This document shows positions 7,339 to 60,163 of a stretch of 64,000 nt of DNA, one piece after another; position 1 is the stretch's first letter, and the number at the start of each line of letters is the position of its first letter. The notes beneath the pieces are model-generated. The model ran no database searches. It worked only from the letters and a program-made list of their open reading frames with translations, and was not told where the DNA came from. The position numbers and the translations under genes are program-made. This stretch comes from an uncultured Bacteroidales bacterium. Its GTDB lineage: Bacteria > Bacteroidota > Bacteroidia > Bacteroidales > Paludibacteraceae. The stretch spans positions 15,736 to 79,735 of the forward strand of contig CAIWIS010000237.1 in the NCBI GenBank assembly GCA_903912795.1. Reading direction: 5' to 3'.

Positions 7339-7369
7339 GGAAAAATTCTCCTCAAGTATGTATAATAAT

Positions 7370-7398
7370 ATTATATAATAACTTGTTATAGACGTCAA
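7370..7398 (-). promoter_or_regulatory. sigma-70-like promoter TTGACG-17-TATAAT, overlapping an ATAACAAGT-N6-A motif at 7374-7389
   Basis: Minus strand reads TTGACGtctataacaagttattaTATAAT. Confidence 0.5.
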
Positions 7399-30568: not shown

Positions 30569-30648
30569 CGATGTATGCGTGTAACTAGATAAAAGTCTAA
30601 ACGTGTGTGTGAGCTATACACAATCTTTAATCATCTCATACCATCCTA

Positions 30649-30657
30649 CCCCCCCCC
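30649..30657 (+). repeat. C9 homopolymer tract
   Basis: cctaCCCCCCCCCtgc in an otherwise AT-rich non-coding region. Confidence 0.9.
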
Positions 30658-30690
30658 TGCATCAATCATGCCAATCCCTATATGATACAC

Positions 30691-32146: not shown

Positions 32147-32256
32147 AAATATATATAGTTAGATCAATTAAATCGTCGTCTCAATATAAAACATTCACTA
32201 AGCGTCTAGATGCAATACGTTTCATTATGAGACATCCCGAATATTATATGGAATAA
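32143..32256 (+). CDS. 37-aa hypothetical protein (below the track cut-off)
   Basis: ATGA start/stop overlap with the previous gene. MKIYIVRSIKSSSQYKTFTKRLDAIRFIMRHPEYYME. Confidence 0.35.
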   Translation: MKIYIVRSIKSSSQYKTFTKRLDAIRFIMRHPEYYME

Positions 32257-32569
32257 ATAGAGTACACCGTGAAATTATTGTGGACACAGCGTAAAGCGTT
32301 CGACGCTGCGAGCGTCTCACTTTGAAGCGCGATAACTTGTCTCATTCTGGACATAGCAAGGCCACTACGGCACGTTTTGTTTCAGTTTGAGACATCATGC
32401 TATGTCTTAATTCAAACTTAATGTTTCATAGCTAGAAATCTCATTTTGAGACTTCAGTCGAGTATTGACTCGGTGTAGTGAGCTTGACTCACTCTTTGCC
32501 TATCCCTTGCGGTATCACTATGAAACAACGCGGCAGCCTTGATTTTTAAACTAATACTGGCACGTTTCT
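32257..32569 (-). ncRNA. candidate ~310-nt structured non-coding RNA (strand inferred from the promoter motif)
   Basis: No ORF of 60 aa or more, and GC clearly above the flanks. 9-bp long-range helices GACATAGCA (32350-58)/TGCTATGTC (32398-406) and GTTTCATAG (32423-31)/CTATGAAAC (32518-26). Hairpins at 32302-16, 32459-72 and 32477-93, the last two both carrying TTGACTC. A TTAACAAGT-N6-A motif at 32569-32584 points into the segment. Confidence 0.45.
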
Positions 32570-32584
32570 TTAATAACTTGTTAA
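32569..32584 (-). promoter_or_regulatory. late-promoter-like motif TTAACAAGT-N6-A with no ORF downstream
   Basis: Minus strand reads TTAACAAGTtattaaA, followed by the GC-rich structured segment. Confidence 0.45.
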
Positions 32585-32745
32585 TAATAACATGTTTTAA
32601 TATGATATGTCAAACTTATTTTTTTATAAATAAGTTATACAGCAAGCAAGTTATTGATTTTATTTTGTTAATTGAATTATTTATAAAAACATATATAAGT
32701 TATACACTGAAAATATTGTTAACTCTCATATATTTGATTTAACCT

Positions 32746-32761
32746 TGGCATCTCGCTTGCT
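32746..32761 (+). promoter_or_regulatory. sigma-54-type promoter TGGCATctcgcTTGCT (amidoligase operon)
   Basis: Followed by the same ATATAGT as at 31312. A 12-nt direct repeat ATAAGTTATACA lies at 32630-41 and 32695-706, about -116 and -51. Confidence 0.55.
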
Positions 32762-32806
32762 ATATAGTTAAGTATCGAGTAACTGATAAAAAAAAAGGAT
32801 GTAAAC

Positions 32807-33832
32807 ATGAAAAACTTTAAAATTGAAAATAATAAAATCGTTATAGACATGAGCGCGATTAAGTCAAAAAAGCATTTATACAATTTTAATATGATGGTCG
32901 GCAAAAATAAACTTAACGATGCGCTGTCTTATCTTGATTCGTTTAATGGTGTCAGAGCGAGAAATCTTTCCTTTAATTCGAATAAAAATTCATTGTGTCG
33001 AGATGTATTAAATGTAAATAAAGACAAATATTTTAAAATATATAACTCAATGTTAGATGCTAATAAACAACACAATCCGATTTCTTTTGATACGCAATAT
33101 TTTGGCGTGGAAATTGAGTGTTTTATACCTTATATTGCAACGTGTACTAATGGCGATATAGATGATTCGACACATAGCAATCAACGCGAATTAAAAAAAT
33201 TGTTTAGCCAAAACAAAATTAAGTTTGCCACTGTAAAAAGCGACGGTTCAATTCGAGAAACTGAAGGTCACTTTCCGGTTGAAATTACAATTTTGACAAA
33301 ATTTAACGACACATCAAATTTGCAAAAAGCATGTGAATTATTAAACAATTTAGGCGCAAAAGTGAATAAATCGTGCGGTTTACATGTGCATTTAGACTCG
33401 CGTAATTTGAGCGAAAGTCAAGTTTTAGAAATTGGGAAAAATTTTAAAAAAGCTTTACCCGTTTTATTAAAGATGGTTCCTAAATCGAGACGCGATAATT
33501 CGTATTGCAGAGCGTCTGTCTCAAAAATGTCAGGACAAAGATATCATGCTGTAAATTTAACAGCGTTTAGTAAATATAAAACAATTGAAATTCGATTGCA
33601 CAGCTCAACAACTGATTTTAATAAAATTATGAACTGGGCTAATTTACTTAACGCCATTAAAAAAAGTACGATCAAAAAAACTTGTCAAAATATTAATGAT
33701 TTAACAGACTACATTAAAATTGACGAAAATTTATTAGAATATGTCGCACAACGCACAGCATTATTTAATGGCGAGAGTGACATATCAATTTCAGCGAAAG
33801 ATCTAGATAATACCGACAGTAACGCAGCATAA
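32807..33832 (+). CDS. amidoligase (glutamine-synthetase-like COOH-NH2 ligase, Amidoligase_2-type)
   Basis: 341 aa. FGVEIECF, SDGSIRE, PVEITILT, CGLHVHLD, YHAVNL and IEIRLHSST occur in the order typical of this family. Confidence 0.7.
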   Translation: MKNFKIENNKIVIDMSAIKSKKHLYNFNMMVGKNKLNDALSYLDSFNGVRARNLSFNSNKNSLCRDVLNVNKDKYFKIYNSMLDANKQHNPISFDTQYFGVEIECFIPYIATCTNGDIDDSTHSNQRELKKLFSQNKIKFATVKSDGSIRETEGHFPVEITILTKFNDTSNLQKACELLNNLGAKVNKSCGLHVHLDSRNLSESQVLEIGKNFKKALPVLLKMVPKSRRDNSYCRASVSKMSGQRYHAVNLTAFSKYKTIEIRLHSSTTDFNKIMNWANLLNAIKKSTIKKTCQNINDLTDYIKIDENLLEYVAQRTALFNGESDISISAKDLDNTDSNAA

Positions 33833-33864
33833 TTTTTTTTAATTAATTTTTAAAGGAGTTTTAT

Positions 33865-34902
33865 ATGTGTAAAATTTTTGTATTAACGAATATGAATAAA
33901 ATTAAAAAAGTTGACAATACTATTAATACGATTATGAATAATCTTGCATATTATGAAAAAGATGGACTAGGCTACACTATTCAAGGGAGTGACGGCATTT
34001 TTGGCGAAAGAAGTACAGACACTAAAAATTTTAGTACTTCATTCGAGCAACCGATGTTAACTTTACCTTTTTTAGAACAATCCTATAACCGCTTTGGAGT
34101 TAAATCTGAAATTATTGGCGGGGGAATATTTCACGGCCGAACATCAACTAATCACAAAAATATAACTAATACGCATCCGATCAATAAACATGGATGGTCA
34201 CTTATTCATAACGGCGTTGTAACCAACCACGGTCCAGAATATAAGCAACACACAACTAACGATAGCGAGCATTTAGTCGAATTAATAGGAACTGTAGGAA
34301 TCAAAGGCATTGAACGCTATTTAACCGGATATTATGCCGCTGCAGCATTTAGTCCAGACAATAAATTGCATATATTTAGAGATAGTATTGCAACGCTTTA
34401 TTTTTGTCATATTCAAAGTATTGATTCGTACGCTATAGCGACAACTATGGACTTATTACAAGACACACTCGCTGAATTAAAATTAAAACATAGCAAAATC
34501 TCAGCAATTAAAGACAATCAATATATTGTGTTAAATAAAAATATTATTGAAAGTGTTCAAACTATTAAACCGAAAGGCCGCACAGCATACGAATCGAAAT
34601 ATTCGGAGTTAAGTCTCGGTCGTAAATTAGACATAACAGAACATATTAGTCAAGAAATGACACTATTAAGTTTAGTTGAAAATGATTCAACTTATACTGA
34701 ATCGCAACTATTATTTATTGAAGAAATAAAAAACTATGCGGATCATACTTACACGTTTTTAGATTTTAGAGGCAATGCTTTGACGCTAGCAGACTTTAAC
34801 GCGTTAGAACTTGACGAAAAATTTATTTGTACGGTAATTAGATCTGACGGCACAGTAGTCAATGCGTATGACTATCATACCGATCGTATTTACATGGGCT
34901 AG
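33865..34902 (+). CDS. class II (Ntn) glutamine amidotransferase-like protein with a C-terminal extension
   Basis: 345 aa. Starts MCKIF (Cys2 nucleophile), with GRTSTN, HPI..HGWSLIHNGVVTNH and NDSEHLVEL. AGGAG SD. Confidence 0.65.
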   Translation: MCKIFVLTNMNKIKKVDNTINTIMNNLAYYEKDGLGYTIQGSDGIFGERSTDTKNFSTSFEQPMLTLPFLEQSYNRFGVKSEIIGGGIFHGRTSTNHKNITNTHPINKHGWSLIHNGVVTNHGPEYKQHTTNDSEHLVELIGTVGIKGIERYLTGYYAAAAFSPDNKLHIFRDSIATLYFCHIQSIDSYAIATTMDLLQDTLAELKLKHSKISAIKDNQYIVLNKNIIESVQTIKPKGRTAYESKYSELSLGRKLDITEHISQEMTLLSLVENDSTYTESQLLFIEEIKNYADHTYTFLDFRGNALTLADFNALELDEKFICTVIRSDGTVVNAYDYHTDRIYMG

Positions 34903-34935: not shown

Positions 34936-35178
34936 ATGAAACCGCTACACTACAAAGGTGAGTTTAGTCTTTTAACTTTGAAAACTGATAATATTGAAAC
35001 GCTAAACACTTTTTTAAAAAAATTAGTGTCAAAACAGCAAGTAATTAAGAGACCATACAAAAGACAATATAAGTTCGCTTTAATACATTTCACCGATCAA
35101 GGACGTTTTACGGACCAAATTTTTGACATGGGTGACAAAATATATTGTAAACCGTTTGACTCTATAATTAGAGACTAA
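34936..35178 (+). CDS. hypothetical protein
   Basis: 80 aa. Confidence 0.55.
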   Translation: MKPLHYKGEFSLLTLKTDNIETLNTFLKKLVSKQQVIKRPYKRQYKFALIHFTDQGRFTDQIFDMGDKIYCKPFDSIIRD

Positions 35179-35180
35179 TC

Positions 35181-35212
35181 ACACATACGCGCGTTTGCGT
35201 TCCTAAAAGGAG
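35181..35212 (+). repeat. (CG)n-CTTTCCTAA junction element, copy A (degenerate)
   Basis: acacATACGCGCGtttgcgTTCCTAAAAGGAG, directly before the ATG at 35221. Confidence 0.7.
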
Positions 35213-35220
35213 ACATATAT

Positions 35221-35469
35221 ATGAGACATTTAGACATAATTAAAGCTTCAAAAAATCAAGATAATAGTTTAATGATTGCCACAATCACCGGAAACAATTT
35301 TGGCGATCAAATAATTGAATTCAGAACTTATGGGATATGTGAAAAGCGAAATGATTTAACATTTTGGGGATATATCACGCAAAGCACTGTAATTAATTGC
35401 GAGGGTGATCACTGGTCACATGATTTTATAATTAAGCACGGTAAACAACTTTATAAAAAAGGAAAATAA
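35221..35469 (+). CDS. hypothetical protein
   Basis: 82 aa, AAGGAG SD inside the junction element. Confidence 0.6.
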   Translation: MRHLDIIKASKNQDNSLMIATITGNNFGDQIIEFRTYGICEKRNDLTFWGYITQSTVINCEGDHWSHDFIIKHGKQLYKKGK

Positions 35470-35471
35470 AA

Positions 35472-35591
35472 ATGAAAACAATTTTTGAATTATTTAATAA
35501 ACAAACTGGCGAAATTATTTTTTTAAATCGAATACAATTTGATAAACTTAATTTGAATAAATTTGTTTTGTTAACTGTCGTCAGTAAATAA
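35472..35591 (+). CDS. 39-aa hypothetical protein (below the track cut-off)
   Basis: The ATG is 2 nt after the previous stop. Followed by AAATAAACGCT, the left arm of the junction element without the CG core. Confidence 0.35.
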   Translation: MKTIFELFNKQTGEIIFLNRIQFDKLNLNKFVLLTVVSK

Positions 35592-35623
35592 AATAAACGC
35601 TTTAAAATAAAGGATGTAAATAT

Positions 35624-35752
35624 ATGTTCAAATTATTTGCCACACGTCAATATTCGACTTATGAACAGTCTTTCATGTCTTGGGTTGACGCTGATATTAA
35701 AAGTAAATTTTTGGCGTCACAAGGCTTTACTGTGACAATAACAAGGTGTTAA
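35624..35752 (+). CDS. 42-aa hypothetical protein (below the track cut-off)
   Basis: AAGGA SD. MFKLFATRQYSTYEQSFMSWVDADIKSKFLASQGFTVTITRC. Confidence 0.35.
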   Translation: MFKLFATRQYSTYEQSFMSWVDADIKSKFLASQGFTVTITRC

Positions 35753-35753
35753 C

Positions 35754-35933
35754 ATGTTTGACTATTATATAGAAATAATATTATTAATATGCATTTTATA
35801 TTTAATATTTGATGTTTATCAAGCGTTTTTCAAACAAGGTGAGTCAATGTCCGATGACGATTTAATGTCCAGATATATTGAACACCAAAGGCGCATACGC
35901 GCGCGTACTTTCCTAAAGGGGAATAAAAAATGA
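35754..35933 (+). CDS. 59-aa membrane peptide, MFD family (below the track cut-off)
   Basis: MFDYYIEIILLICILYLIFD.... Its 3' end translates junction-element copy B. ATGA overlap with the next gene. N-terminus paralogous to 36721-36786. Confidence 0.4.
   Translation: MFDYYIEIILLICILYLIFDVYQAFFKQGESMSDDDLMSRYIEHQRRIRARTFLKGNKK
35890..35921 (+). repeat. (CG)n-CTTTCCTAA junction element, copy B
   Basis: ggcgcATACGCGCGCGTACTTTCCTAAAGGGG; the core TACGCGCGCGTA is a perfect palindrome. Confidence 0.8.
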
Positions 35934-36145
35934 AAGAACTAACACTTTTCGATTTAATGCGTTATACTGATAAGATTAATACGATAAATACGCTATTAAA
36001 AACAACGGACGATACAGAATTGATAGAACAATATGAGGACGAATTATTAGAACTAGAATATATTATAAACCGTGGGATTAAAGTATCTAAACAAAAAAAT
36101 AAGTTTGAACGTATTAAAAACATAGGATTAAGGGTTGTAAAATGA
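35930..36145 (+). CDS. hypothetical protein
   Basis: 71 aa. Confidence 0.55.
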   Translation: MKELTLFDLMRYTDKINTINTLLKTTDDTELIEQYEDELLELEYIINRGIKVSKQKNKFERIKNIGLRVVK

Positions 36146-36351
36146 GTCATATTCGCGCATGTGCTTTCCTAATATCATTAATGCCATCATTTAATGCTTA
36201 CAGTAAACCGACTGTTATAGGCAACGCTGAATTTTGCGCTATAAGCCCGACAGAGATTCATTGTGTCGATCATAATATGAATCAATGTCTTAGAACTTTA
36301 TCATTGTTACGAGACGGTGTAGGATGCGTTAAAAACCCTAGATATAAATAA
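36142..36351 (+). CDS. small secreted cysteine-rich protein (candidate)
   Basis: 69 aa with a signal-peptide-like N-terminus (ACAFLISLMPSFNAYS) and 5 Cys in the mature part. Its 5' end carries the degenerate element copy C (36148-36174). Confidence 0.5.
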   Translation: MSHIRACAFLISLMPSFNAYSKPTVIGNAEFCAISPTEIHCVDHNMNQCLRTLSLLRDGVGCVKNPRYK

Positions 36352-36360
36352 GGATATATT

Positions 36361-36480
36361 ATGAAACATTGTTTAATAATTTTAACTTGTTTATCTGTTA
36401 ATAAAAATTTATTAAATTTAAAAAATATAGCTAATGTTATTCAACCTAAACAACCTGTTATAGTTTTGACTAACAAATAA
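36361..36480 (+). CDS. 39-aa hypothetical protein (below the track cut-off)
   Basis: AAGGA SD. MKHCLIILTCLSVNKNLLNLKNIANVIQPKQPVIVLTNK. Confidence 0.35.
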   Translation: MKHCLIILTCLSVNKNLLNLKNIANVIQPKQPVIVLTNK

Positions 36481-36513
36481 ACGCTATACGCACGCACGCT
36501 TTCCTAAGAGGGG
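36481..36513 (+). repeat. (CG)n-CTTTCCTAA junction element, copy D
   Basis: ACGCTATACGCACGCACGCTTTCCTAAGAGGGG, directly before the ATG at 36519. Confidence 0.8.
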
Positions 36514-36518
36514 ATTAT

Positions 36519-36719
36519 ATGGATAAAACATTTTATGTGATTCGATACCGCACTGAATTAAATTGCTGGACTAGACTGCATCCCAACGGTTTTACATTAA
36601 ACAACGCCAATAACTTTAAAGCTAATTATAAAGTCGATCAATTTTACCTTGACGTGGTGCATGAGATGTGGTTAGATTGTTTAGATGTGTGGCCTGAACC
36701 TGGGTATATGGATAAATAA
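36519..36719 (+). CDS. hypothetical protein
   Basis: 66 aa. Confidence 0.55.
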   Translation: MDKTFYVIRYRTELNCWTRLHPNGFTLNNANNFKANYKVDQFYLDVVHEMWLDCLDVWPEPGYMDK

Positions 36720-36720
36720 C

Positions 36721-36786
36721 ATGTTTGACAATACTTTTTTTATAATGTTAGTTATTGTTTGTATTTATTTAAGTTTTAAAATATAA
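36721..36786 (+). CDS. 21-aa hydrophobic peptide, MFD family
   Basis: MFDNTFFIMLVIVCIYLSFKI. The TAACATGTTTGAC context is the same as at 35750. Confidence 0.3.
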   Translation: MFDNTFFIMLVIVCIYLSFKI

Positions 36787-36795
36787 TTAAAATAA

Positions 36796-36826
36796 ACGCT
36801 ATACGCGCGCGCGCTTTCCTAAGAGG
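36796..36826 (+). repeat. (CG)n-CTTTCCTAA junction element, copy E
   Basis: ACGCTATACGCGCGCGCGCTTTCCTAAGAGG, before the ATG at 36836. Confidence 0.85.
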
Positions 36827-36835
36827 AAATATTTT

Positions 36836-37084
36836 ATGGATTTAACAGGAAAATTTATTAAACATAAAAAATTTATAGATATTTGTATTAATATAACTTA
36901 TATGGATACAAATAATTCAAGTTTAATTATTCATGGTATTTTTTGGAACTTAGGATTTGTTGAAAGTTTTAATATTGGAAAAAAAGTCAATTTGAATATT
37001 ATTAATAAAAATGAATGGCTTATTCTTTCTGATAAAGGCATGAAAGATAAATGTTTTAGGTATTCTAAATGGAGTGAATTATGA
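36836..37084 (+). CDS. hypothetical protein
   Basis: 82 aa. Confidence 0.55.
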   Translation: MDLTGKFIKHKKFIDICINITYMDTNNSSLIIHGIFWNLGFVESFNIGKKVNLNIINKNEWLILSDKGMKDKCFRYSKWSEL

Positions 37085-37284
37085 AAATTAGCGATTTAGT
37101 TGAAATTTTAAATTTTCAAGCTGAAACTAGAGAAGACTTAGATGAAACCAATTTAGATATGTTACAACATGAATATGAAAAAATGTTTAAAAATTTTTGC
37201 GGTCAAGTTCCAATATTTAAAATTATAGATAAAAAAGGAAAAATTTATGTCTATGGATACCTCACGCACATCCCGAATTATTAG
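37081..37284 (+). CDS. hypothetical protein
   Basis: 67 aa, GGAG SD, ATGA overlap. Confidence 0.55.
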   Translation: MKISDLVEILNFQAETREDLDETNLDMLQHEYEKMFKNFCGQVPIFKIIDKKGKIYVYGYLTHIPNY

Positions 37285-37489
37285 TGACGTTTTATTAGAT
37301 TTAGAACCTTTATTATTTGAATTGACGGAAGAACAAGGATTGCAGATGGGTGAAATGTTAGCATTAGTTAAATGTTGGATAGAAATTCATTATCCTGATG
37401 CAATAGAAGAATATCAAAACGGCACACATCCTATATATTATTATGGTCCTAAAGAAAATATGCTTGCATTTGCTAAAAAATTAAAATAA
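37247..37489 (+). CDS. hypothetical protein
   Basis: 80 aa, AAGGA SD; overlaps the previous gene. Confidence 0.5.
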   Translation: MSMDTSRTSRIISDVLLDLEPLLFELTEEQGLQMGEMLALVKCWIEIHYPDAIEEYQNGTHPIYYYGPKENMLAFAKKLK

Positions 37490-37493
37490 AATA

Positions 37494-37527
37494 GTGCTAT
37501 ACGCGCGCGCGTACTTTCCTAAAGGAG
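37494..37527 (+). repeat. (CG)n-CTTTCCTAA junction element, copy F
   Basis: gtGCTATACGCGCGCGCGTACTTTCCTAAAGGAG; the 14-bp core TACGCGCGCGCGTA is a perfect palindrome. Confidence 0.85.
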
Positions 37528-37532
37528 AAAAT

Positions 37533-37796
37533 ATGTCTTATCAAAAAGAAATTCCTTTTAGAGATTATATTATTACGTTTGAATATGACGTAAATGAAGG
37601 TTTAAATCTTTTAAATTGGACCGCGTATGAAGGAAATAACGAAATCACTATTCCTTGTCGCGTTGAATCTGAATTTATTGAAAAACAATTACATAATTGG
37701 TTAGATAATGAATGGTATCATAATGGATCTAATTATATCGAAGACGTTTATATTGATAGAATGGAAAGACGTTTAAATATGTTAGAGGATAGATAA
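37533..37796 (+). CDS. hypothetical protein
   Basis: Uses ATG 37533 (AAGGAG SD). The track GTG start at 37494 would translate the junction element. Confidence 0.55.
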   Translation: MSYQKEIPFRDYIITFEYDVNEGLNLLNWTAYEGNNEITIPCRVESEFIEKQLHNWLDNEWYHNGSNYIEDVYIDRMERRLNMLEDR

Positions 37797-38414: not shown

Positions 38415-38607
38415 AGTAATTACTAAAAAAGATTTACAATCAATAGCAAGACTTGCACATAATTATTTTATGGATTTAGCAAATAAAGATTTAGATAATG
38501 CAGAATTTATTGCTAAATGTTATTTAGAGGCGTGTTCAGGAATTTTAGGTATTAAAAATTATGAATATGAGGAAAAAATCCCATATATTCCAGCAGATGA
38601 TGAATAA
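38401..38607 (+). CDS. hypothetical protein
   Basis: 68 aa. Confidence 0.55.
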   Translation: MQKNRVITKKDLQSIARLAHNYFMDLANKDLDNAEFIAKCYLEACSGILGIKNYEYEEKIPYIPADDE

Positions 38608-39073
38608 ATATTTATTAAGTTCTTTTATAATTCATTTATTATTTTTATTTCCATTATTTTTATTGAATAATAATAAAATAAACAACGATTCATTTGATAA
38701 TGGAAATGGAATAAATGAAAGTCAAAAAATAAACTCAACTGATGTTGAAATTATTGAAATAAACGAAGGTGAAGGCAAACAAGTTGTGCCTGAAAATTTT
38801 TATTGGGGAATAGGAATAGGTAGTTCTGCAACATTTGAGAATATTTCACCTTATGGATTAGTATTAGTTATTATTGTAACTAGTATTAAAAAAGGTTATA
38901 GTGCATACGATTCAGATTTACAAATTGGTGATAAAATAATTTTAGTAAATAATAATGTTATTTCTAATCAAAACGATATTAAAGGTGATAGTCCTAAAAG
39001 TTTAATATTGACATTAATTAGAAATAATTCTATAATAAATATCGCAATTGATCGAGTTAAAGTTTATTTTTAA
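38597..39073 (+). CDS. membrane-anchored PDZ-like domain protein
   Basis: N-terminal TM helix (LLSSFIIHLLFLFPLFLL). The C-terminal ...GLVLVIIVTSIKKGYSAYDSDLQIGDKIILVNNNVI...LILTLIRNNSII resembles a PDZ fold. Confidence 0.4.
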   Translation: MMNKYLLSSFIIHLLFLFPLFLLNNNKINNDSFDNGNGINESQKINSTDVEIIEINEGEGKQVVPENFYWGIGIGSSATFENISPYGLVLVIIVTSIKKGYSAYDSDLQIGDKIILVNNNVISNQNDIKGDSPKSLILTLIRNNSIINIAIDRVKVYF

Positions 39074-52203: not shown

Positions 52204-53769
52204 ATGTATTCTAATCAACTTATTTTTGGTAAAAATCAATTAACTAATATTGCTAGTGTTGAAGTTGATGGCGATAATTTAATTATTTTTCAGGAAAAAA
52301 ATGGGGAATTTGGTGAATTAACGACATCAGTTTTTCCTGCAACATATTGGTTTATTACTAATAAACGTATTTCACAAAAACAAATAGAACTTGAAGGAAA
52401 TCAATATTATAAATATTTAGCTGAATTTTCTTCTTTAGAAGAATATGAAAAAGTTAGATCTTTATTATATCAAAAACGTATAGATTTTTATACTATTTGG
52501 GATAAAAAAGAAGCTAATATGGTTCGTCAGGGCATTACTTATTATAAAGGTTTGCAACCTAAAGATATCAGCGTATTATCATTTGATATTGAATCTGATG
52601 GATTAAATAAAACTAAAAATTCTGAAATATATATTATTACTAATACTTTTAGACGAGGTGAAGAAATAATTCGTCAATCTTTCTTTTTAGATGATTATGA
52701 TACTCAAGCTGAAATGATTGATGATTGGTGTTTTTTTGTTAGAACAATGGACCCTAGTATTATTTTGGGACATAATATATTTTCATATGACTTTCCATAT
52801 TTAGCTCATGTTGCTGCATTGAATAATACAAGTTTAAAATTAGGTAGAGATGAATCTGATATTAGATTTAATGATAAAGCTTCTAGTTTTAGAAAAGATG
52901 GAAGTCAAAGTTATGAATACAATAAAGCTTTTATTTTTGGTCGTGAATTGGTTGATACTATGTTTTTATCAATTAAGTATGATGTTGCTAGAAATTTTCC
53001 ATCGTATGGTTTAAAATCAATTGTTAAACATTTAGGTATGGAAAAAGAAGGTCGAAGTTTTGTTGATGCTAGTAAAATTAAACATTTTTATAATGAAAGA
53101 ATTAAATTTCCTGAAATGTGGGATAAAACTAAAGCTTATGCTGAAGAAGATTCGGATGATGCTTTAAAACTATATGATTTAATGTCGCCTAGCTTTTTTT
53201 ACATGACACAAAATATTAGTAAAACTTATCAAGAAATTAATTGTGGAGCTACTGGTTCTCAAATTAATAATATGATGGTTCGTAGTTATTTTCAATTAAA
53301 TCATAGTATTGCTAAAGCTAGTGAAGCAGAACCTTTTGAAGGAGGCATTTCACTAGGAGTTCCTGGAATATATAAAAACTGTTTAAAGTGGGATTTAGCA
53401 TCTGCATATCCTCACACTATTATACAATACAATTTATATGATAAACGCAAAGATCCTGCCGGTAATTTTTTAACGATGGTAAAATATTTTACTAAAGCTC
53501 GTATTCAAAATAAAAAACTAGCCAAAGAAACGAATTTAATTTACTATAAAGATTTGGAACAAAGTCAAAAAATAGTGATAAATAGTTTTTTTGGATTTTG
53601 TGGGGCTACAGGATTAAATTATAACGCACCAGCTATTGCCGCAGAAATTACTAGACGTTGTCGCGGTTATATTATAGAATCAATAAAATGGGCAACAGGA
53701 CAAGAATTAGATTATTGGAAATTGAAATCCTCTGGAGAAGAATTAGATGAAGAAAAGCGGGATTTATAA
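52204..53769 (+). CDS. family B DNA polymerase, N-terminal fragment (exonuclease, motif A, motif B)
   Basis: ExoI FDIESDG, ExoII GHNIFSYDFPYL, ExoIII YAEEDSDD, motif A DLASAYPH, motif B KIVINSFFGF. Stops about 10 codons before where motif C is expected. Confidence 0.85.
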   Translation: MYSNQLIFGKNQLTNIASVEVDGDNLIIFQEKNGEFGELTTSVFPATYWFITNKRISQKQIELEGNQYYKYLAEFSSLEEYEKVRSLLYQKRIDFYTIWDKKEANMVRQGITYYKGLQPKDISVLSFDIESDGLNKTKNSEIYIITNTFRRGEEIIRQSFFLDDYDTQAEMIDDWCFFVRTMDPSIILGHNIFSYDFPYLAHVAALNNTSLKLGRDESDIRFNDKASSFRKDGSQSYEYNKAFIFGRELVDTMFLSIKYDVARNFPSYGLKSIVKHLGMEKEGRSFVDASKIKHFYNERIKFPEMWDKTKAYAEEDSDDALKLYDLMSPSFFYMTQNISKTYQEINCGATGSQINNMMVRSYFQLNHSIAKASEAEPFEGGISLGVPGIYKNCLKWDLASAYPHTIIQYNLYDKRKDPAGNFLTMVKYFTKARIQNKKLAKETNLIYYKDLEQSQKIVINSFFGFCGATGLNYNAPAIAAEITRRCRGYIIESIKWATGQELDYWKLKSSGEELDEEKRDL

Positions 53770-54451
53770 AATTATTAATTTAATTAATAATAAATTCTAT
53801 ATAGGATCTTCTATTGATTTAGATAATAGATTTAAAAATCATATAGCTATGTTAAATAAAAATACGCATATTAATATAAAATTACAAAGAGCCTGGAATA
53901 AATATGGACAAAACAATTTCATATTTCATATTATCGAATTTTGTTCTTCAAATAAATGTTTAGAATTAGAACAATTTTATTTAAATTCGATTATGGGGTT
54001 TTATAATATCGCTTCAAACGCTTCTGCACCTATGACAAATAGAAAACATAATCAAAAAACTTTAGATAAATTAAAAGGTCGAAAATGTTGGAATAAAGGA
54101 ATTAAAAGGACTGAAGCTGAAAAACTTTTAATGTCTAAAAATAGAAAATTGGCTTATCAAAACATGGACCAAAAATCTATTGAAATATGGAAACAAAAAA
54201 TTCGCCAAAATCCTAATAAATATTGGACCAATAAAAAGCTTCCTGAAGAAATGAAACAAAAAATTAGCGATTTTTGGAAAAATAAAAATAATTTCAATTT
54301 ATTATGTGAACAAAATAATAAATTATATTCAACACAATTAGAAGCAGCAAAAGATTTAAAAATTAAACAAGGTCATATTAGTGAACATTTAAATGACAAA
54401 AGATCTAATGTTTTTGGATATACTTTTAAAAAGGTATTAAAAAATGTATAA
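53747..54451 (+). CDS. GIY-YIG homing endonuclease (I-TevI/Seg-like)
   Basis: GIYKIIN...KFYIGSS...R..NH, followed by NUMOD3-like GRKCWNKGIKRTEAEK. Overlaps both polymerase fragments. Confidence 0.85.
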   Translation: MKKSGIYKIINLINNKFYIGSSIDLDNRFKNHIAMLNKNTHINIKLQRAWNKYGQNNFIFHIIEFCSSNKCLELEQFYLNSIMGFYNIASNASAPMTNRKHNQKTLDKLKGRKCWNKGIKRTEAEKLLMSKNRKLAYQNMDQKSIEIWKQKIRQNPNKYWTNKKLPEEMKQKISDFWKNKNNFNLLCEQNNKLYSTQLEAAKDLKIKQGHISEHLNDKRSNVFGYTFKKVLKNV

Positions 54452-55217
54452 TTTTAAATTAGTTAATGCAGATACCGATTCGATAATGGTTTGTAAAGAA
54501 AATGGTGAACTATTTAGCGTTGAAGAACAACAAGCTTTAATTGGCGAACTAAACAACATGTTTCCTGAACATATCAACTGGGATGAGGATGGATATTTTA
54601 GTTCAGTAGTTGTTATAAAGGCTAAAAATTACGTTTTAAAAGAACATGAAACTAATAAAATTAAAATTAAAGGATCAGGATTAAAAGATAGTAAAAAAGA
54701 ATTTGCTATGCGAGAAATGATGAGTAAAATTGTAGAAGCATTACTCAATCATGAAATTGATAAAATTCAAGAAATTTATGAATCATATATTAAAGAAGCA
54801 ATTTTAGTTAAAGATATTATGCGTTGGTCACAAAAAAAGACTGTTACGGAATCAGTTTTAAACTGTGCTAATGGTGAAGGTCGTAAAAATGAGATGGATG
54901 TCTATAAAGCTATCGAAAATGAAACAGTTCAAGCCGGAGATAAAATTTATTTATATCCAGTAATATTTGGAACAGAAGTTATTCCTGGAGGAATATCTGA
55001 AAAAACTGGTAAACCGCTTAAAGATAAAACAGTTGAAATTACTGGTTTAAAATTAGCTCAAAATTGGTCTAATGACCATGATGTTGATAAATTATTAGAT
55101 CGAGTATATGCCACTATAAAAATTTTTAAATCGGTTATTGACATTAATCAATTTGTAGATTATACTAAAAAAAGTAATCACGAATTATTAAAGCAATTAA
55201 AAAGGAATATACTTTGA
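54444..55217 (+). CDS. family B DNA polymerase, C-terminal fragment (motif C and thumb)
   Basis: Starts MYNFKLVNADTDSIMV (motif C, DTDS); 257 aa. Confidence 0.8.
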   Translation: MYNFKLVNADTDSIMVCKENGELFSVEEQQALIGELNNMFPEHINWDEDGYFSSVVVIKAKNYVLKEHETNKIKIKGSGLKDSKKEFAMREMMSKIVEALLNHEIDKIQEIYESYIKEAILVKDIMRWSQKKTVTESVLNCANGEGRKNEMDVYKAIENETVQAGDKIYLYPVIFGTEVIPGGISEKTGKPLKDKTVEITGLKLAQNWSNDHDVDKLLDRVYATIKIFKSVIDINQFVDYTKKSNHELLKQLKRNIL

Positions 55218-56239
55218 AATTCTATAAATCAAAACAAAACGAATCTAAAGAATTATGTTGTATAGCTTGGTCTAATACTCATGGTGGTTATTTAGCTACA
55301 ACTAATGGAGTTCGTCTTGGTGTTGCGGTTTTAGATAAAGAAGAATTTTTACATGTTAAAGCTGGTAATCTAGATGTTTTATATAATTGCGGTGAACCTG
55401 TTGAAAATTTGGATATAGCACATGATTACTTAGAAGATTCTAAAATTGACAATTCTAATGAATTTATGATTTATATTAATAAACAAGTAAGTCGAAATGA
55501 ATTACCTTATGGAGTATTTAGAGTTAATTTGACTGATAGAGGTTTATTATTTAAAAATTATAATAGTTCGGTAAATATACCGTCAACTTTAATTAAAACC
55601 CACAATTTAAAAGAAGAAGTATTAAATTTTTTTAATAATCCTATTGTTGATAGAAAAAACAAAAAAGGTATTCTTTTATATGGACCTCCTGGGAACGGTA
55701 AAACTTCAGATTTAATTTCACTTTTTGATATTTGTGAAGAAATGAAAATGAGAATTTTTATGGTAAATAGTAAAGTTCCATTAGCATTTTTAAGTGAAGT
55801 CCAATCTTCTTTAGAATGTGATAGATCTATTTTTATTTTTGAAGAAATGACTGAGCGTATTGATAGAAATGGTACAGAAGACATTTTGACATTCTTAGAT
55901 GGTGAAAACTCTTGGAATAATTCTATCACTATTGGTACAACAAATTACCCTAAAGATTTCCCAGCTAATCTCATCGACCGTCCTGGACGATTTGATACAT
56001 TTATTGAATACTCTAATCCTAATAAACAGCAAAAAATTGAATTAGCTGAAAAATTCGGATTTAATGAATCGGAAATTTTAGATTTAATGAATAAAGATCT
56101 TAGTTTTGATTATTGTTCATTTATCATGTCTCAGGCTAAAGCTAAAAATATTTCAGTTAGTGAAACAATTAAAATTGAAGCAGAAAAACGTCAAAAAATT
56201 TCAGGAACATTTAGGACAACAATGGGTTTAGGATTTTAA
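55214..56239 (+). CDS. classic-clade AAA ATPase
   Basis: Walker A GPPGNGKTS, Walker B IFIFEE, sensor-1 GTTN, Arg finger DRPGRFD. TTG start in a TTGA overlap. Confidence 0.75.
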   Translation: MKFYKSKQNESKELCCIAWSNTHGGYLATTNGVRLGVAVLDKEEFLHVKAGNLDVLYNCGEPVENLDIAHDYLEDSKIDNSNEFMIYINKQVSRNELPYGVFRVNLTDRGLLFKNYNSSVNIPSTLIKTHNLKEEVLNFFNNPIVDRKNKKGILLYGPPGNGKTSDLISLFDICEEMKMRIFMVNSKVPLAFLSEVQSSLECDRSIFIFEEMTERIDRNGTEDILTFLDGENSWNNSITIGTTNYPKDFPANLIDRPGRFDTFIEYSNPNKQQKIELAEKFGFNESEILDLMNKDLSFDYCSFIMSQAKAKNISVSETIKIEAEKRQKISGTFRTTMGLGF

Positions 56240-56475
56240 TGAATAATTTAATTCACTTGGAAGAGTTAATACTTGCTAAAAAAGTTTGTGAAGACTTTCC
56301 AAGTGCTATTAGAAAGATTGACATTTGTCACGATCAATTGTATAATTATAAAGAATATATTGATATTATGCGAGTAATTAGACAATTAGAAGAATCTAAA
56401 TATATGATGGAATTAACTTTAGAAGTTTATACTCAAGTTTTAAAAAATGCTAGAGGAATTGATGAGCAAAAATAA
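56239..56475 (+). CDS. hypothetical protein
   Basis: 78 aa, TAATG overlap. Confidence 0.55.
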   Translation: MNNLIHLEELILAKKVCEDFPSAIRKIDICHDQLYNYKEYIDIMRVIRQLEESKYMMELTLEVYTQVLKNARGIDEQK

Positions 56476-58051
56476 TATAAAAAATAAAATTTTAGAAACT
56501 TTCATTAAACTTATAAAAGAAAAAAAAATGACACCAAGTCGTTCTGAGCTTCATAAAGCTGGAATAACTCAAGATATGTATAGACATCATTTTAAAACTA
56601 TTGCAGGTCTTAAAGAAGCGGCTAGACAAAAAGATCCTAAAGCATTTGAACAAATGATTGATGAAACAGTTTTTAGTCCTAAAATTCTTAAAAAACTTAA
56701 AGGTGAAGTAAAAAAATATAATAAATTTGTAATTACAACTGCAGTCACTGGAATGTCAGTACACAGTGCTTTTTATAAAAATTTAAAATTTTATTGTGAA
56801 AAAAATAATGCTAAACTTTTAATTCTTCCTAGCACAGATCCTGCAGCTATTGCTGGATTTGAAATTGATGGTGGTTTATTTAATGAATCAATTGTTGTTC
56901 AAGATTTAGCTTTAAACGACAATTTAATGATTTCAACATTTAAAACGTCTGCTAAACAAATTAATCCTTTGACTGGTCTTCGTCGCATGGGTCGTCGTGA
57001 AAGATCTATGATTGTCGCAAGTCCTAAACAATTTTTAGAATATGTACCTATAGCTAATGATGCAATGTCTCATGCTTTAATGACAACTGGAGCAATTACT
57101 AAACCTCAATATCACACAGAACGATATATGTCACTTAGAACTGCATATATTGCTGAATTAGATCATAAACTTGGCGCAATTGTTGTTGAGTTACAAGATA
57201 ATAAAACTTTTCACTTTAGACAAATTCAAGCTGAATATGGCACTGGATTTTTTATAGATAATGGTATTTATTATAAAATAAATAAAACTACATCAATTCG
57301 ACCTGAAGCTTTAGTATTAGGCGATATTCATGTAGGTTCATTAAGTGGTGATGTAATTCAAACTACAGATGATATTATTTCAACTTTAAAACCTAAACGT
57401 GTATTTTTACATGATTTATTTGATGGCGTTTCTTGTAATCCACATGCTTCAGCTCAATATTTAACTAGAGCTAAATTTACATTATCACAATTAAGTATTG
57501 AAGAAGAATTAAAATTGGTTAAAGAATATTTAACTGAAATGAGAGCAAAACATTCGTGTGTTGAGGAATGGGTTATTGTTCGATCAAACCATGATTTATT
57601 TTTAGATAGACTTCTCGATTCTGGTGACTATATTAAAGATCCTATTAATAGTAAAATCTGTCATAAATTGGCTTCACTTAAACTTGACGGAAAAATGCCT
57701 TTACAAGAAGGTTTAAAATTGGTGGGCTTAAATGTATCTAAAATTAAATTTTTATCCATTAATGATAGCTATAGAATTGCTGGAATTGAACATGGAGTTC
57801 ACGGACATTTAGGATTAAATGGTCAAAGAAATCCTGGTAATTCTAGTTTAGAAATTGCTTATGGTTCAGGAACATTTGCTCATAGTCATTCTGCTGGTAT
57901 TCTTCGGGATATTTTTAGAGTAGGTACTTCTACTGAAATGCGCCTTGGTTATAATAATGGCGCATCTAGTTGGACTAATACTTGTTGTCCAACTTATGCT
58001 AATGGTAGTCGCCAATTAATTAATGATATTAATGGTAAATGGAGAATTTAA
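56462..58051 (+). CDS. calcineurin-like metallophosphoesterase with an N-terminal extension
   Basis: Ordered motifs GDIHVG, HDLFDG, RSNHD, HGVHGH and HSHSAG. I prefer the start at 56462 (AGAGGA SD). Confidence 0.6.
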   Translation: MSKNNIKNKILETFIKLIKEKKMTPSRSELHKAGITQDMYRHHFKTIAGLKEAARQKDPKAFEQMIDETVFSPKILKKLKGEVKKYNKFVITTAVTGMSVHSAFYKNLKFYCEKNNAKLLILPSTDPAAIAGFEIDGGLFNESIVVQDLALNDNLMISTFKTSAKQINPLTGLRRMGRRERSMIVASPKQFLEYVPIANDAMSHALMTTGAITKPQYHTERYMSLRTAYIAELDHKLGAIVVELQDNKTFHFRQIQAEYGTGFFIDNGIYYKINKTTSIRPEALVLGDIHVGSLSGDVIQTTDDIISTLKPKRVFLHDLFDGVSCNPHASAQYLTRAKFTLSQLSIEEELKLVKEYLTEMRAKHSCVEEWVIVRSNHDLFLDRLLDSGDYIKDPINSKICHKLASLKLDGKMPLQEGLKLVGLNVSKIKFLSINDSYRIAGIEHGVHGHLGLNGQRNPGNSSLEIAYGSGTFAHSHSAGILRDIFRVGTSTEMRLGYNNGASSWTNTCCPTYANGSRQLINDINGKWRI

Positions 58052-58329: not shown

Positions 58330-58929
58330 ATGTTGACTTCAATGGGTGATGTAATGAGAGAAGCACATAAACGTGGCTGGATTACAACTCGTGATGGTAA
58401 TATTTCTTTAAGAAGAGAAGATAAATTTTATATTACTCCATCTGGAGTTAGAAAATATTTAATTCATCCTGAACACATTGTTAAATATTATGTTGATGAT
58501 TTTGATGATACACTTATGGGTAGAAATGAAGGAACTCCTTCTGGAGAGCTAGAAATGCATCGGTTACTTCAAACAACCGCAGATTTTGAAGGATGTAGAG
58601 CTGTAGTACATTTACATCCAACATACATTATTGCTGCGATCCATCGAGGATTCGATTTACAAAAATTAGCAGCAGACTTTCCTGAAGTATCTAGATATAC
58701 TAAAGTTGGCCCCACAGTTCCGGTTTTACCAGTTATATCTAAAGAATTAGCTATTGCAACACATGAAGTAATGACTGACATTTTTAGTTCATCTTTAGAA
58801 TATGATATAGTAGGTCAAGCAGGACATGGTGTTTGTGCTATCGGTAAATCGCCTTGGGATGCATTTGAGCATATAGAACGACTTGAACATATTTGTCAAA
58901 TTGTATTAGCTTCTGGAGTAAATCCGTGA
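58330..58929 (+). CDS. class II aldolase/adducin-family protein
   Basis: 199 aa. GNISLR...ITPSG, SGELEMH and VVHLHPTY zinc-ligand pattern, as in fuculose-phosphate aldolase or ribulose-5-P epimerase. Confidence 0.65.
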   Translation: MLTSMGDVMREAHKRGWITTRDGNISLRREDKFYITPSGVRKYLIHPEHIVKYYVDDFDDTLMGRNEGTPSGELEMHRLLQTTADFEGCRAVVHLHPTYIIAAIHRGFDLQKLAADFPEVSRYTKVGPTVPVLPVISKELAIATHEVMTDIFSSSLEYDIVGQAGHGVCAIGKSPWDAFEHIERLEHICQIVLASGVNP

Positions 58930-59129
58930 AACGAAGTGAAATGTTAAAATTTCTTTATGATACTACTGATAAATTTATAGCTAATAATACTGATGAAAAT
59001 TTAATTGATGTGGTATTAGATGAGTGCGTTAAATTGGGTATGTTACCTCCTCCTTCAGTAAAAGAAATTTATGATGGAGATAATACAAATTTTGAAGTAA
59101 TCTATGATTGGGAAGATGAAAATGATTAG
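58926..59129 (+). CDS. MKRSEM paralog-family protein (GTG start)
   Basis: VKRSEMLKFL...LGMLPPPSV...WEDEND. The 5' nucleotides GTGAAACGAAGTGAAATG match 45530 and 45843. Confidence 0.55.
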   Translation: MKRSEMLKFLYDTTDKFIANNTDENLIDVVLDECVKLGMLPPPSVKEIYDGDNTNFEVIYDWEDEND

Positions 59130-59751
59130 AATACCGAATAAAAAAGCTTCAGATGAAGCTGAACAATCATCAGAGGATTTAGATTATATTATTTCAGGAG
59201 TTGATTTAGAATCTCGACGAATTGAATTTCGTGGAGAAGTTAATGAAACAATGTCGTCTATTATAATTCGTTCATTACTTAAAATGAGCGAAAAATCATT
59301 ATCGCCCATTGAAATATACCTTTCTAGTCCTGGCGGAGATGTATATGAAGGATTGGCAATTTATGATGCAATAATGGCATGTCCTTGTGATATTCATATT
59401 ATAGCTTCAGGAAAAATTATGTCAGCAGCTTTTATAATTTTCTTAGCTGGAGACATAAGATTAGCTGCCCCACATACAACATTTATGATGCACTCAGTTT
59501 CATATGATCCTGGTAATGGTATTGTAAAAAGCCATGAAGTACAAGTAAATGAAGGTAAAAGAATTAATAATGTATTTTTAGATATTATGTCTTCTAGAAC
59601 TAATCGTAATAAAAAATGGTGGTATAGAACTATTTTGAATCAAGATAAATATTTAAATTTACAAGATGCTATTGAAGTTGGTATAATTAAAATGGCACAA
59701 CAAATTAAAAAACCTATCAAGAAAGTAGTAAAGAAAAATGTCAGAAAATAA
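59116..59751 (+). CDS. ClpP-family (S14) serine peptidase
   Basis: LSSPGGDVYEGLAIYDAI, Ser in GKIMSAAF, His in FMMHSV, C-terminal Asp region. The start is ambiguous (59104/59116/59122). Confidence 0.75.
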   Translation: MKMIRIPNKKASDEAEQSSEDLDYIISGVDLESRRIEFRGEVNETMSSIIIRSLLKMSEKSLSPIEIYLSSPGGDVYEGLAIYDAIMACPCDIHIIASGKIMSAAFIIFLAGDIRLAAPHTTFMMHSVSYDPGNGIVKSHEVQVNEGKRINNVFLDIMSSRTNRNKKWWYRTILNQDKYLNLQDAIEVGIIKMAQQIKKPIKKVVKKNVRK

Positions 59752-60163
59752 TAAATCAATGGGACAAAAAAATGATCAAGAAAAACCAGATCTTTCGCTT
59801 ATTCCAACTGACGCATTATGGGGTATGGCAAAAGCTTTAACTTATGGTGCTAGAAAATATGACAAACATAATTTTCGTAAAGGAATTGCTTATTCAAGAT
59901 TAATAGCCGCAACGATGCGACATCTTTCAGCTTTTAATGAAGGTGAAAATAACGATACTGAAAGTAGTTTATCTCATATAGATCATGCAATGGCATCTTT
60001 AGCAATGCTTAAATTTATGATGGAAAATCAATCTCGAATGGATGATAGATATATTGCACCTAAAAATATTTTAAATGAATCAACCAAAGATCCAGAAATT
60101 AATATAATTAATGATGAAACGCGGTATCTTATGGGTATGAAAATTCAAATGAGAGGGCGATAA
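59738..60163 (+). CDS. dATP/dGTP diphosphohydrolase N-terminal-domain-like (DUF5664/MazG-like) protein
   Basis: KPDLSLIPTDALWGMAKALTYGARKYDKHNFRKG...RHLSAF..GE..D.ES.LSHIDHA matches my recollection of that family. Confidence 0.55.
   Translation: MSENNKSMGQKNDQEKPDLSLIPTDALWGMAKALTYGARKYDKHNFRKGIAYSRLIAATMRHLSAFNEGENNDTESSLSHIDHAMASLAMLKFMMENQSRMDDRYIAPKNILNESTKDPEINIINDETRYLMGMKIQMRGR

Follow-up and report, generated by a model that had tools for sequence, protein, structure and literature searches.

Phage modules that combine an amidoligase with a class II glutamine amidotransferase (GATase) are the subject of a comparative-genomics prediction that is ascribed to Iyer et al. 2009. The 64,000-nucleotide (nt) stretch of contig CAIWIS010000237.1 analyzed here, referred to as the window, is phage DNA by its gene content and carries such a pair on its + strand, with an amidoligase gene at 32807-33832 followed by a GATase gene at 33865-34902. 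The pair is a divergent member of a kind that is already annotated in cultured phages. The Arthrobacter phage Wheelbite (Laroyevirus) encodes gp93, annotated as "amidoligase," and gp94, annotated as "glutamine amidotransferase domain protein," which are adjacent, on the same strand, and in the same order as in the window. In the OM43 phages MEP401/402, both families are reported together, as they are found here (PMC10580990). The cassettes of phiEco32, Salmonella phage 7-11, LUZ24-like and RIO-1-like phages, and Phage-ZRK32 likewise hold an Amidoligase_2 protein and a class II GATase in an early or middle region (PMC3890496, PMC5498523, PMC10945688). A preliminary description of the window had overstated the novelty of the pair in view of the annotation of the same ordered genes in Wheelbite and their description in OM43, LUZ24-like, and phiEco32-like phages. 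Its statement that no substrate has been reported agrees with literature searches, which found no experimentally determined substrate, function, or phenotype for the phage pair.

The window pair can be told apart from these systems by sequence, size, and setting. Its amidoligase is only ~27% identical to the amidoligases of cultured phages. The GATase folds of the Wheelbite type and of the window match each other (BFVD A0A222ZJH0, E = 5e-14), and the fold similarity also extends to those of GAP52 and CW02. The Wheelbite GATase, however, is 295 residues long, and a profile of the C-terminal domain of the window GATase matched only the window's own family and repeat proteins that are probably spurious hits. 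Whereas the Wheelbite pair is located at the genome end beside a helicase, the window pair stands at the head of the early region. Cassettes of the phiEco32/LUZ24/RIO-1 type hold more genes, namely those for an ATP-grasp enzyme, a gamma-glutamyl cyclotransferase, and a further ligase (COOH-NH2_lig), and encode longer GATases of 437-657 residues, compared to 345 in the window. A role of these larger cassettes in peptidoglycan modification is a published hypothesis, not a result (PMC5498523). The window pair, in contrast, stands alone: no ATP-grasp enzyme, second COOH-NH2 ligase, or gamma-glutamyl cyclotransferase was found in the larger window open reading frames (ORFs) scanned or among the conserved neighbors, with ~17 kb of the ~81-kb genome lying outside the window. 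Particular to it are a minimal form of two genes, a GATase C-terminal domain that is specific to the lineage, the lack of a zinc-finger insert in the amidoligase, and a sigma-54-type element directly upstream. The locus is made up as follows:

32746-32761, + strand: sigma-54-type -24/-12 promoter-like element TGGCATCTCGCTTGCT, 61 nt upstream of the amidoligase ATG
32794-32799, + strand: Shine-Dalgarno sequence AAAGGA of the amidoligase gene, 8 nt before the ATG at 32807
32807-33832, + strand: Amidoligase_2 (COOH-NH2 ligase) gene, 341 residues, Pfam PF12224
33852-33858, + strand: Shine-Dalgarno sequence AAAGGAG of the GATase gene, within the 32-nt intergenic gap and 7 nt before the ATG at 33865
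33865-34569, + strand: class II (N-terminal nucleophile, Ntn) glutamine amidotransferase domain, residues 1 to ~235, with the Cys2 nucleophile
34570-34701, + strand: hinge (PxGxxxxExxxxxxSLG), helix, and variable acidic linker of the GATase, residues 236-279
34702-34902, + strand: family-specific C-terminal domain of the GATase, ~65 residues, and stop codon

The two proteins may act as a two-subunit, early-expressed, glutamine-dependent carboxylate amidotransferase that amidates a carboxylate substrate, the best supported of the readings considered, though held with somewhat less than even confidence. The observations on which it builds are family membership, intact catalytic residues, the fold of the GATase, strict linkage, and a position in the early region. 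Complex formation, ammonia transfer, the use of ATP, the timing of expression, and the class of target are what it would add to them.

The amidoligase is composed of a helical, family-specific N-terminal region (residues 1-95), for which no match was found in Pfam, and a catalytic core that extends from residue 96 to ~290. Judged by profile scores, its membership of Amidoligase_2 is firm: the protein scores 78.1 bits against PF12224 (gathering cutoff 22, E = 1.3e-21), and in PHROGs it matches phrog_2443, "amidoligase enzyme," at E = 2.2e-30. In total, 827 homologs were found. Residue conservation was scored on an alignment of 66 homologs, all of which also match PF12224. Invariant positions in this alignment are P91, G100, E102, I103, E104, C105, D146, S148, E159, C190, G191, H193, H195, R228, C234, N250, T259, E261, R263, H265, I274, W277, and R316. 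They include the ordered ExE...E...HxH...R...ExR pattern (E102, E104, E159, H193, H195, R228, E261, R263, and H265), which is characteristic of glutamine-synthetase-like ligases; these enzymes make acyl-phosphates react with ammonia or amines. By analogy, this acidic/His/Arg set probably provides the expected metal, ATP, and phosphate ligands of a glutamine-synthetase-like carboxylate-amine ligase. The AlphaFold2 (AF2) model of the protein has a seven-stranded core and a predicted local distance difference test score (pLDDT) of 90.3.

About half of the amidoligase homologs carry a DnaJ-type CXXCXGXG zinc-finger insert (34/66 by pattern, 31/66 by Pfam) after the first catalytic strand (GVEIEC) and ahead of the KxDGS motif. 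The window amidoligase has a short loop without zinc ligands at this site (residues 106-125, 33122-33181). The CXXCXGXG zinc finger is a protein-binding module in DnaJ and anti-TRAP. The loop past the first catalytic strand is hypervariable among the homologs, about half of which harbor a double CXXCXGXG (DnaJ/anti-TRAP type) and others Cys- and acid-rich inserts.

The GATase has 345 residues. It exceeds the Pfam cutoff for GATase_6 (32.3 bits, cutoff 27, E = 1.1e-7), remains below that for GATase_7 (21.7 bits, cutoff 25, E = 2.2e-4), and matches glutamine amidotransferase/GlmS-like families in PHROGs. Conservation was scored on 70 full-length homologs with 35-58% identity. The nucleophile Cys2 directly follows the initiator Met (MCKIF) and is kept in at least 90% of them, while H90, R92, S94, T95, N96, H115, N116, G117, N132, and D133 are invariant. 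R92, N116-G117, and D133 fall on the Arg, Asn-Gly, and Asp of GlmS, both by phmmer against PDB 1xff and by hhalign against the GlmS glutaminase domain; the central part of the GlmS sequence used for hhalign was confirmed against PDB 1xff. The GlmS residues are presumably R73, N98-G99, and D123. In GlmS, R73 binds the glutamine carboxylate, N98-G99 forms the oxyanion hole, and D123 binds the alpha-amino group. The AF2 model of the GATase (pLDDT 93.3) is predicted to take on the four-layer alpha-beta-beta-alpha Ntn fold, and Foldseek aligns it with PurF, GlmS, human GFAT, and AsnB at E = 2e-9 to 1e-7 and with EgtC at E = 2e-7. These matches span only ~260-290 columns. A search of PDB chains by sequence gave no meaningful match for the GATase.

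The preliminary description had quoted motifs for both proteins, and all of them are found in the translations of the two ORFs at the coordinates and on the strand it had given (FGVEIECF, SDGSIRE, PVEITILT, CGLHVHLD, YHAVNL, and IEIRLHSST in the amidoligase; MCKIF, GRTSTN, HNGVVTNH, and NDSEH in the GATase). The Shine-Dalgarno sites of both genes are strong. Both of its family assignments are borne out by profile matches above the curated Pfam cutoffs. The Cys2 nucleophile and the glutamine-site residues are intact and correctly aligned, and the acidic/His/Arg ligand set of the amidoligase is conserved.

GlmS, PurF, and AsnB share the glutaminase fold, the N-terminal Cys, and the Arg/Asn-Gly/Asp glutamine site with the window GATase. 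In these enzymes the acceptor domain lies on the same chain, whereas the window GATase carries a 65-residue C-terminal domain and its presumed acceptor is a separate protein. Unlike characterized class II members, the GATase has no fused C-terminal acceptor (synthase) domain. Because residues 236-345 consist of a linker and a 65-residue domain without known relatives, the protein is classed as a stand-alone subunit. This region had been described as an extension of roughly 130 residues without a recognized motif; the extension is real, but its length is ~110 residues. It begins with the hinge, in which G238, S250, and L251 are conserved, and continues into the acidic linker, which differs in length and sequence among homologs and has a pLDDT of 53-73 at residues 261-280. 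The C-terminal domain follows the consensus ...D.SY...D..G......EF..LD...Q..CTV.RPDGT.VD, with E287, D293, F311, R326, D328, and G329 being nearly invariant. When its profile was searched against 1.84 billion cluster representatives, 105 proteins matched. Most of them are C-termini of proteins with 300-440 residues or short, probably partial, sequences, and those already among the listed GATase homologs all belong to the GATase family of the window. A minority are long multi-repeat proteins with short alignments, which are probably spurious. No counterpart of the domain was found in Pfam, in PDB sequences, or in BFVD. Taken by its sequence profile, the domain is specific to the GATase lineage of the window and is a candidate docking or specificity element.

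Linkage of the two genes was compared across the window and 15 non-redundant related phage loci from NCBI/ENA assemblies, Logan, and IMG/VR (30-57% identity). In 16/16 loci, the GATase match is directly preceded by an amidoligase ORF that shares its strand, and the GATase ORF is complete in 15/16, with L013 ending at a contig edge. The gap between the two genes ranges from -8 to +41 nt in seven loci with called genes and is 32 nt in the window. All + strand ORFs within ~6 kb were clustered all-against-all at BLAST sensitivity, and no other family near the pair was common to more than 4/16 loci. The ten small ORFs downstream of the pair (34936-37796), which had been suggested as substrates or accessory factors, have no Pfam or PHROG match and are not conserved beside it in the 16 loci. 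A small ORF upstream or downstream as a conserved partner or substrate was rejected on the same grounds. By this comparison, the pair is a self-contained two-gene module, and the tiny ORFs downstream are unconserved ORFans that are not part of it. That a divergent uncultured clade keeps this minimal version indicates that two proteins suffice as a unit.

The position of the pair in the window is defined by two gene blocks:

815 to ~26 kb, - strand: structural and packaging genes (terminase, portal, major head protein, tail proteins, PhoH)
from ~31.3 kb onward, + strand: early block, opening with tiny ORFs

The amidoligase and the GATase are the only + strand ORFs of more than 100 residues at 31.3-37.9 kb. 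The clustered -24/-12 sites at the opening of the + strand block lie just before the pair, and the replication genes follow downstream of it, so the module heads the early region and is preceded by sigma-54-type motifs. In the related phages, genes near the pair encode a SET methyltransferase, an S-adenosylmethionine (SAM) lyase, a polynucleotide kinase/phosphatase-RNA ligase, and HNH endonucleases. The SET methyltransferase, the SAM lyase, and the kinase/RNA ligase are families that we take to be typical of early host-takeover or anti-defense regions. Neither protein of the pair matched a PADLOC defense model.

Outside these phages the two families part company. The GATase family was not found when one genome each of 185,579 bacterial and archaeal species was scanned, and a tblastn search of the INPHARED phage genome records returned nothing for it at E <= 1e-5. 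Amidoligase relatives (25-33% identical) are present in 73 of the species genomes, mostly in prophage-like regions of Bacteroidota, Kapaibacteria, Desulfovibrio, and Myxococcota. In the prophage-like regions of Bacteroidota, Kapaibacteria, and Desulfovibrio (loci L020-L081), the amidoligase lacks a GATase partner. In 40 prophage loci the amidoligase is directly followed by a conserved protein of ~78 residues (e.g., L025, 6717-6953) with the consensus MKY..DG..IEA.SP.E.V..LR.GSRF..., of which no homolog was found in the window or the related phages. These loci hint that prophage amidoligases have a different partner or substrate, possibly a virion-related one. The C-terminal domain of the GATase was also considered as a fused version of the ~78-residue Bacteroidota prophage protein and was rejected (hhalign probability 0.1%, E = 0.75). 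In the Porphyromonas phage locus L094 (3755-3994), the genes for the amidoligase and the ~78-residue protein are located between head-tail adaptor and neck genes.

In the proposed mechanism, the reaction would start with the GATase, whose Cys2, after removal of the initiator Met, would hydrolyze glutamine. The released ammonia, or glutamyl-thioester chemistry, would then be coupled to the amidoligase. Using ATP and Mg2+, the amidoligase would activate the carboxyl group of the substrate as an acyl-phosphate and turn it into an amide. In the reaction of glutamine synthetase, the founding member of the amidoligase superfamily, an acyl-phosphate is coupled to ammonia. The flexible acidic linker would tether the C-terminal domain of the GATase, which would most likely dock the subunits or help in substrate recognition. 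The GATase lacks a built-in acceptor domain, which makes the neighboring ligase the obvious candidate for this role, and the absence of other conserved genes around the pair fits an enzyme of two subunits without a third phage component. The target would more likely be a carboxylate of a host macromolecule or of the envelope (protein, peptidoglycan, or surface polysaccharide) than a free metabolite. Such a target is favored because the pair heads an early, host-takeover region, because many homologs carry protein-binding zinc-finger inserts, and because a cell-wall hypothesis has been published for the larger cassettes (PMC5498523, PMC10580990). In a directed evolution experiment with a LUZ24-like phage, parallel missense changes arose in both the amidoligase and the GATase in two lines, and the pair therefore affects phage fitness (PMC11450229).

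The closest working analogy is MurT/GatD of Gram-positive peptidoglycan synthesis, an enzyme of two subunits. Its separate glutaminase supplies ammonia to a ligase-fold subunit, which uses ATP and amidates a carboxylate via an acyl-phosphate (PMC3267633, PMC5871853). The folds of MurT/GatD, a class I triad GATase and a Mur ligase, are unrelated to those of the window pair, however, and the likeness is a mechanistic analogy only.

Several points weigh against the two-subunit amidotransferase. The GATase partner is present at just 3-4 of the 73 cellular or prophage amidoligase loci, and the amidoligase is therefore not intrinsically dependent on glutamine-derived ammonia. To our knowledge, every characterized class II amidotransferase has a fused acceptor domain, and a split version is without precedent. 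A gamma-glutamyl amidohydrolase such as EgtC would account equally well for the conserved residues of the GATase. The glutamine-synthetase-like fold of the amidoligase is putative: it is suggested by the Pfam family, the motifs, and one weak NCBIfam match to TIGR02050 (YbdK carboxylate-amine ligases, E = 0.007, residues 157-222), which is the sole cross-family signal. Foldseek found no significant PDB match for its model (best E = 0.023), and PDB chain searches with the protein and its profile found no solved structure among its sequence relatives. Early expression is deduced from gene position only.

In its fullest form, the two-subunit amidotransferase would be expressed early from a sigma-54-type promoter, docked through the C-terminal domain of the GATase, and directed at a host macromolecule or the envelope for the purpose of takeover, anti-defense, or superinfection exclusion. 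This full account is doubtful. If true, a class II amidotransferase that is heteromeric and acts on a macromolecule would be new. The window does not make the substrate easier to test for, since its phage has not been cultured and surrogates in culture are already available.

The equal fit of the glutamine-site residues is the starting point for a different reading, in which the amidoligase adds glutamate or another amino acid to a substrate amine and the GATase trims the product, in the manner of EgtA/EgtC and without ammonia transfer. The residues that hold the glutamyl group would be conserved just as well in such a ligase/hydrolase couple, and EgtC, an Ntn amidohydrolase, is among the fold matches of the GATase (see above). 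In larger phage cassettes, both families are accompanied by an ATP-grasp ligase, a gamma-glutamyl cyclotransferase, and a gamma-glutamyl amidoligase, a combination that suggests the building and trimming of gamma-glutamyl peptides (PMC5498523, PMC3890496). These extra ligase and cyclotransferase genes are absent near the pair in the window and its 15 relatives, however. In addition, a pair that makes and undoes the same bond needs an intervening step, and no conserved gene supplies one. Pfam places the GATase in GATase_6/GATase_7, and its best fold matches are PurF and GlmS rather than EgtC. On balance, a gamma-glutamyl ligase and hydrolase is unlikely.

EgtA/EgtC and PafA/Dop both combine a glutamine-synthetase-like ligase with an enzyme that acts on a gamma-glutamyl or glutamine amide, as the window pair may do, but the pair has no sequence-level membership in either system. 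Ergothioneine genes are absent from its surroundings, and it has no conserved neighbor that encodes a Pup-like tag. PafA and Dop are themselves glutamine-synthetase-like, and a pupylation-like system, in which target lysines receive a small protein or peptide that the amidoligase attaches by its Glu/Gln carboxylate and the GATase serves as the tag deamidase, is a further candidate. Peptide tagging was reportedly proposed for such systems by Iyer et al. 2009 on the basis of comparative genomics. The zinc-finger inserts of the amidoligase homologs suggest protein binding. Also in favor of tagging are the ~78-residue protein that follows the Bacteroidota prophage amidoligases in 40 loci and the position of the Porphyromonas phage amidoligase among head-tail genes. 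But the ~78-residue family is absent from the window and the related phages and unrelated to the C-terminal domain of the GATase. The 16 loci share no small protein beside the pair, and the tiny ORFs downstream are ORFans. Tagging is accordingly regarded as distinctly improbable.

Hypermodification of DNA or nucleotides, with the pair amidating or extending a modified base or its precursor and thereby evading restriction, draws on the following genes elsewhere in the window:

5881-7398, - strand: 505-residue fusion of an endonuclease VII-like N-terminal domain (phrog_1035) and a Mom-family DNA-modification domain (PF25680, E = 5.8e-13)
59738-60163, + strand: 141-residue protein with a dATP/dGTP diphosphohydrolase N-terminal domain (PF18909, E = 3.5e-29)

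MazZ-type enzymes are known from phages whose genomes contain 2-aminoadenine (Z), and the PF18909-type protein is presumably one of them. The scanned ORFs of the window, outside which ~17 kb of the genome lie, include no PurZ-like gene. The endonuclease VII-like/Mom fusion gene is located amid late and structural genes. Besides this Mom-family protein and the MazZ-like domain, the window encodes a dUTPase, and in viral contigs amidoligase and amidotransferase genes are co-associated with thymidine-hypermodification clusters (Lee et al. 2021, PMC8989533). The Mom, MazZ-like, and dUTPase genes of the window are 25-27 kb away from the pair, however, which sits among early ORFans and apart from the nucleotide-metabolism genes. 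No gene is conserved beside the pair across the 16 loci, and its adjacent ORFs match no family; a 5-hydroxymethyldeoxyuridine (5-hmdU) kinase, aGPT-Pplase, a pyridoxal phosphate (PLP)/radical-SAM enzyme, and a dUMP hydroxymethylase were all absent from the conserved neighbors in the 16 loci and from the adjacent ORFs. The scanned window ORFs gave no nucleotide kinase, hydroxymethylase, or base-modifying transferase beyond the Mom-family protein. A role in hypermodification is thus very unlikely.

An auxiliary role in nitrogen metabolism, in which the pair boosts glutamine/glutamate turnover or the amino acid supply of the host during infection, has been proposed without enzymology for a Planctomycetes phage (PMC10945688) and the OM43 phages (PMC10580990) and is highly improbable here, as the GATase family is absent from the 185,579-species scan and hence not a host-derived metabolic gene, the pair has no match to a named metabolic enzyme family in NCBIfam beyond the weak YbdK-family signal, and an early takeover position and fast-evolving inserts better suit a conflict function.

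More unexpected than the pair are the sigma-54-type elements at the head of the early region. The pair had been described as a discrete unit with its own -24/-12 promoter. The element is present: TGGCATCTCGCTTGCT fits the TGGCAC-N5-TTGCW consensus, with its GG and GC doublets exactly 10 base pairs (bp) apart. The unit, however, is delimited on its 5' side only, as no terminator-like site directly follows 34902 and the nearest one on the + strand is located at 35405; a discrete transcription unit is therefore not supported. Strict TGGCAY-N5-TTGCW sites occur five times in the window compared to 0.10 expected, a number that was reached in 0/100 shuffles. All five lie on the + strand (30784, 30823, 31297, 31959, and 32746), and TGGCAT-N5-TTGC is invariant across them. 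Near-variants are found at 30691 and 30862, the latter extending a tandem array with 39-bp spacing (30784/30823/30862). Looser - strand variants lie in the divergent control region at 30659 and 30710, and a G9/C9 run at 30647-30656 adjoins a - strand variant.

The related phage loci contain 21 strict sites in 152.6 kb compared to 0.17 expected. They are concentrated where early regions begin and occur in either orientation (L001, L002, L004, L010, L011, L012, L014, L017, and L019), and the -12 element often lies within a TTGC-N4-GCAA palindrome or precedes a C-rich run. In the window and in L017, L001, and L008, the amidoligase start is preceded by a -24/-12-like motif at a distance of at most 70 nt, and in the remaining loci the pair is located inside a longer early operon with -24/-12 sites further upstream. 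Given this recurrence, the -24/-12 element is a genuine conserved sequence feature of the phage lineage, with a putative role as a promoter. The sigma-70 consensus occurs at chance level in the window (54 compared to 52.7 expected). A sigma-70 reading of the element at 32746 (TTAACC-18-TATAGT) was rejected, being possible at that site alone and showing -35/-10 elements that are inconsistent across the five sites.

The elements matter because transcription by sigma-54 normally requires an activator ATPase of the host. No sigma-54 activator family was matched among the window proteins, of which two AAA proteins fit the generic PF00004 only. A literature search found no published account of sigma-54-driven early phage transcription. 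If true, sigma-54-dependent early transcription of a phage would be new and would need an enhancer-binding activator to be hijacked or bypassed. The early region of the related phage L019 encodes a 66-residue Fis-type HTH_8 protein (1266-1466) near sigma-54-type sites. HTH_8 is a DNA-binding domain that is typical of sigma-54 activators.

Upstream of the amidoligase gene, a 550-bp gap without a credible ORF (32257-32806) interrupts an otherwise tightly packed genome. It contains a GC-richer stretch (~32255-32545), which is followed by a very AT-rich run up to the -24/-12 element. This stretch had been put forward as a structured RNA candidate. It folds at -81.4 kcal/mol, modestly better than shuffled sequences (z = -2.0), but a relaxed-threshold Rfam search of 32150-32850 gave no match, and no tRNA was found in the gap.

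The GC content of the phage DNA is ~30%. Further along the + strand block are genes for a ribonucleotide reductase, an exonuclease, ERF, a primase-helicase, and a family B DNA polymerase, together with a GIY-YIG endonuclease, a T5 A1-like phosphoesterase, ClpP, and the dUTPase. The following genes were located:

38561-39073: PDZ-domain protein
52204-53769 and 54444-55217, + strand: family B DNA polymerase in two ORFs
53747-54451, + strand: GIY-YIG homing endonuclease gene that interrupts the family B DNA polymerase
55214-56239 and 60555-61481, + strand: two paralogous AAA ATPases in the replication block
56447-58051: T5 A1-like metallophosphoesterase, 39.9% identical to one from an Ochrobactrum jumbo phage
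58330-58929: class II aldolase
59104-59751: ClpP protease

No tRNAs and no Rfam families were found across the whole window, and the INPHARED phage genome records hold neither near-identical nor distant DNA relatives of it. The portal protein is 27.6% identical to that of a phage infecting the freshwater bacterium Silvanigrella. Identical proteins are present on 12-15 metagenomic contigs, the longest of 81.4 kb, whose sample names suggest freshwater lakes as the habitat of the phage.

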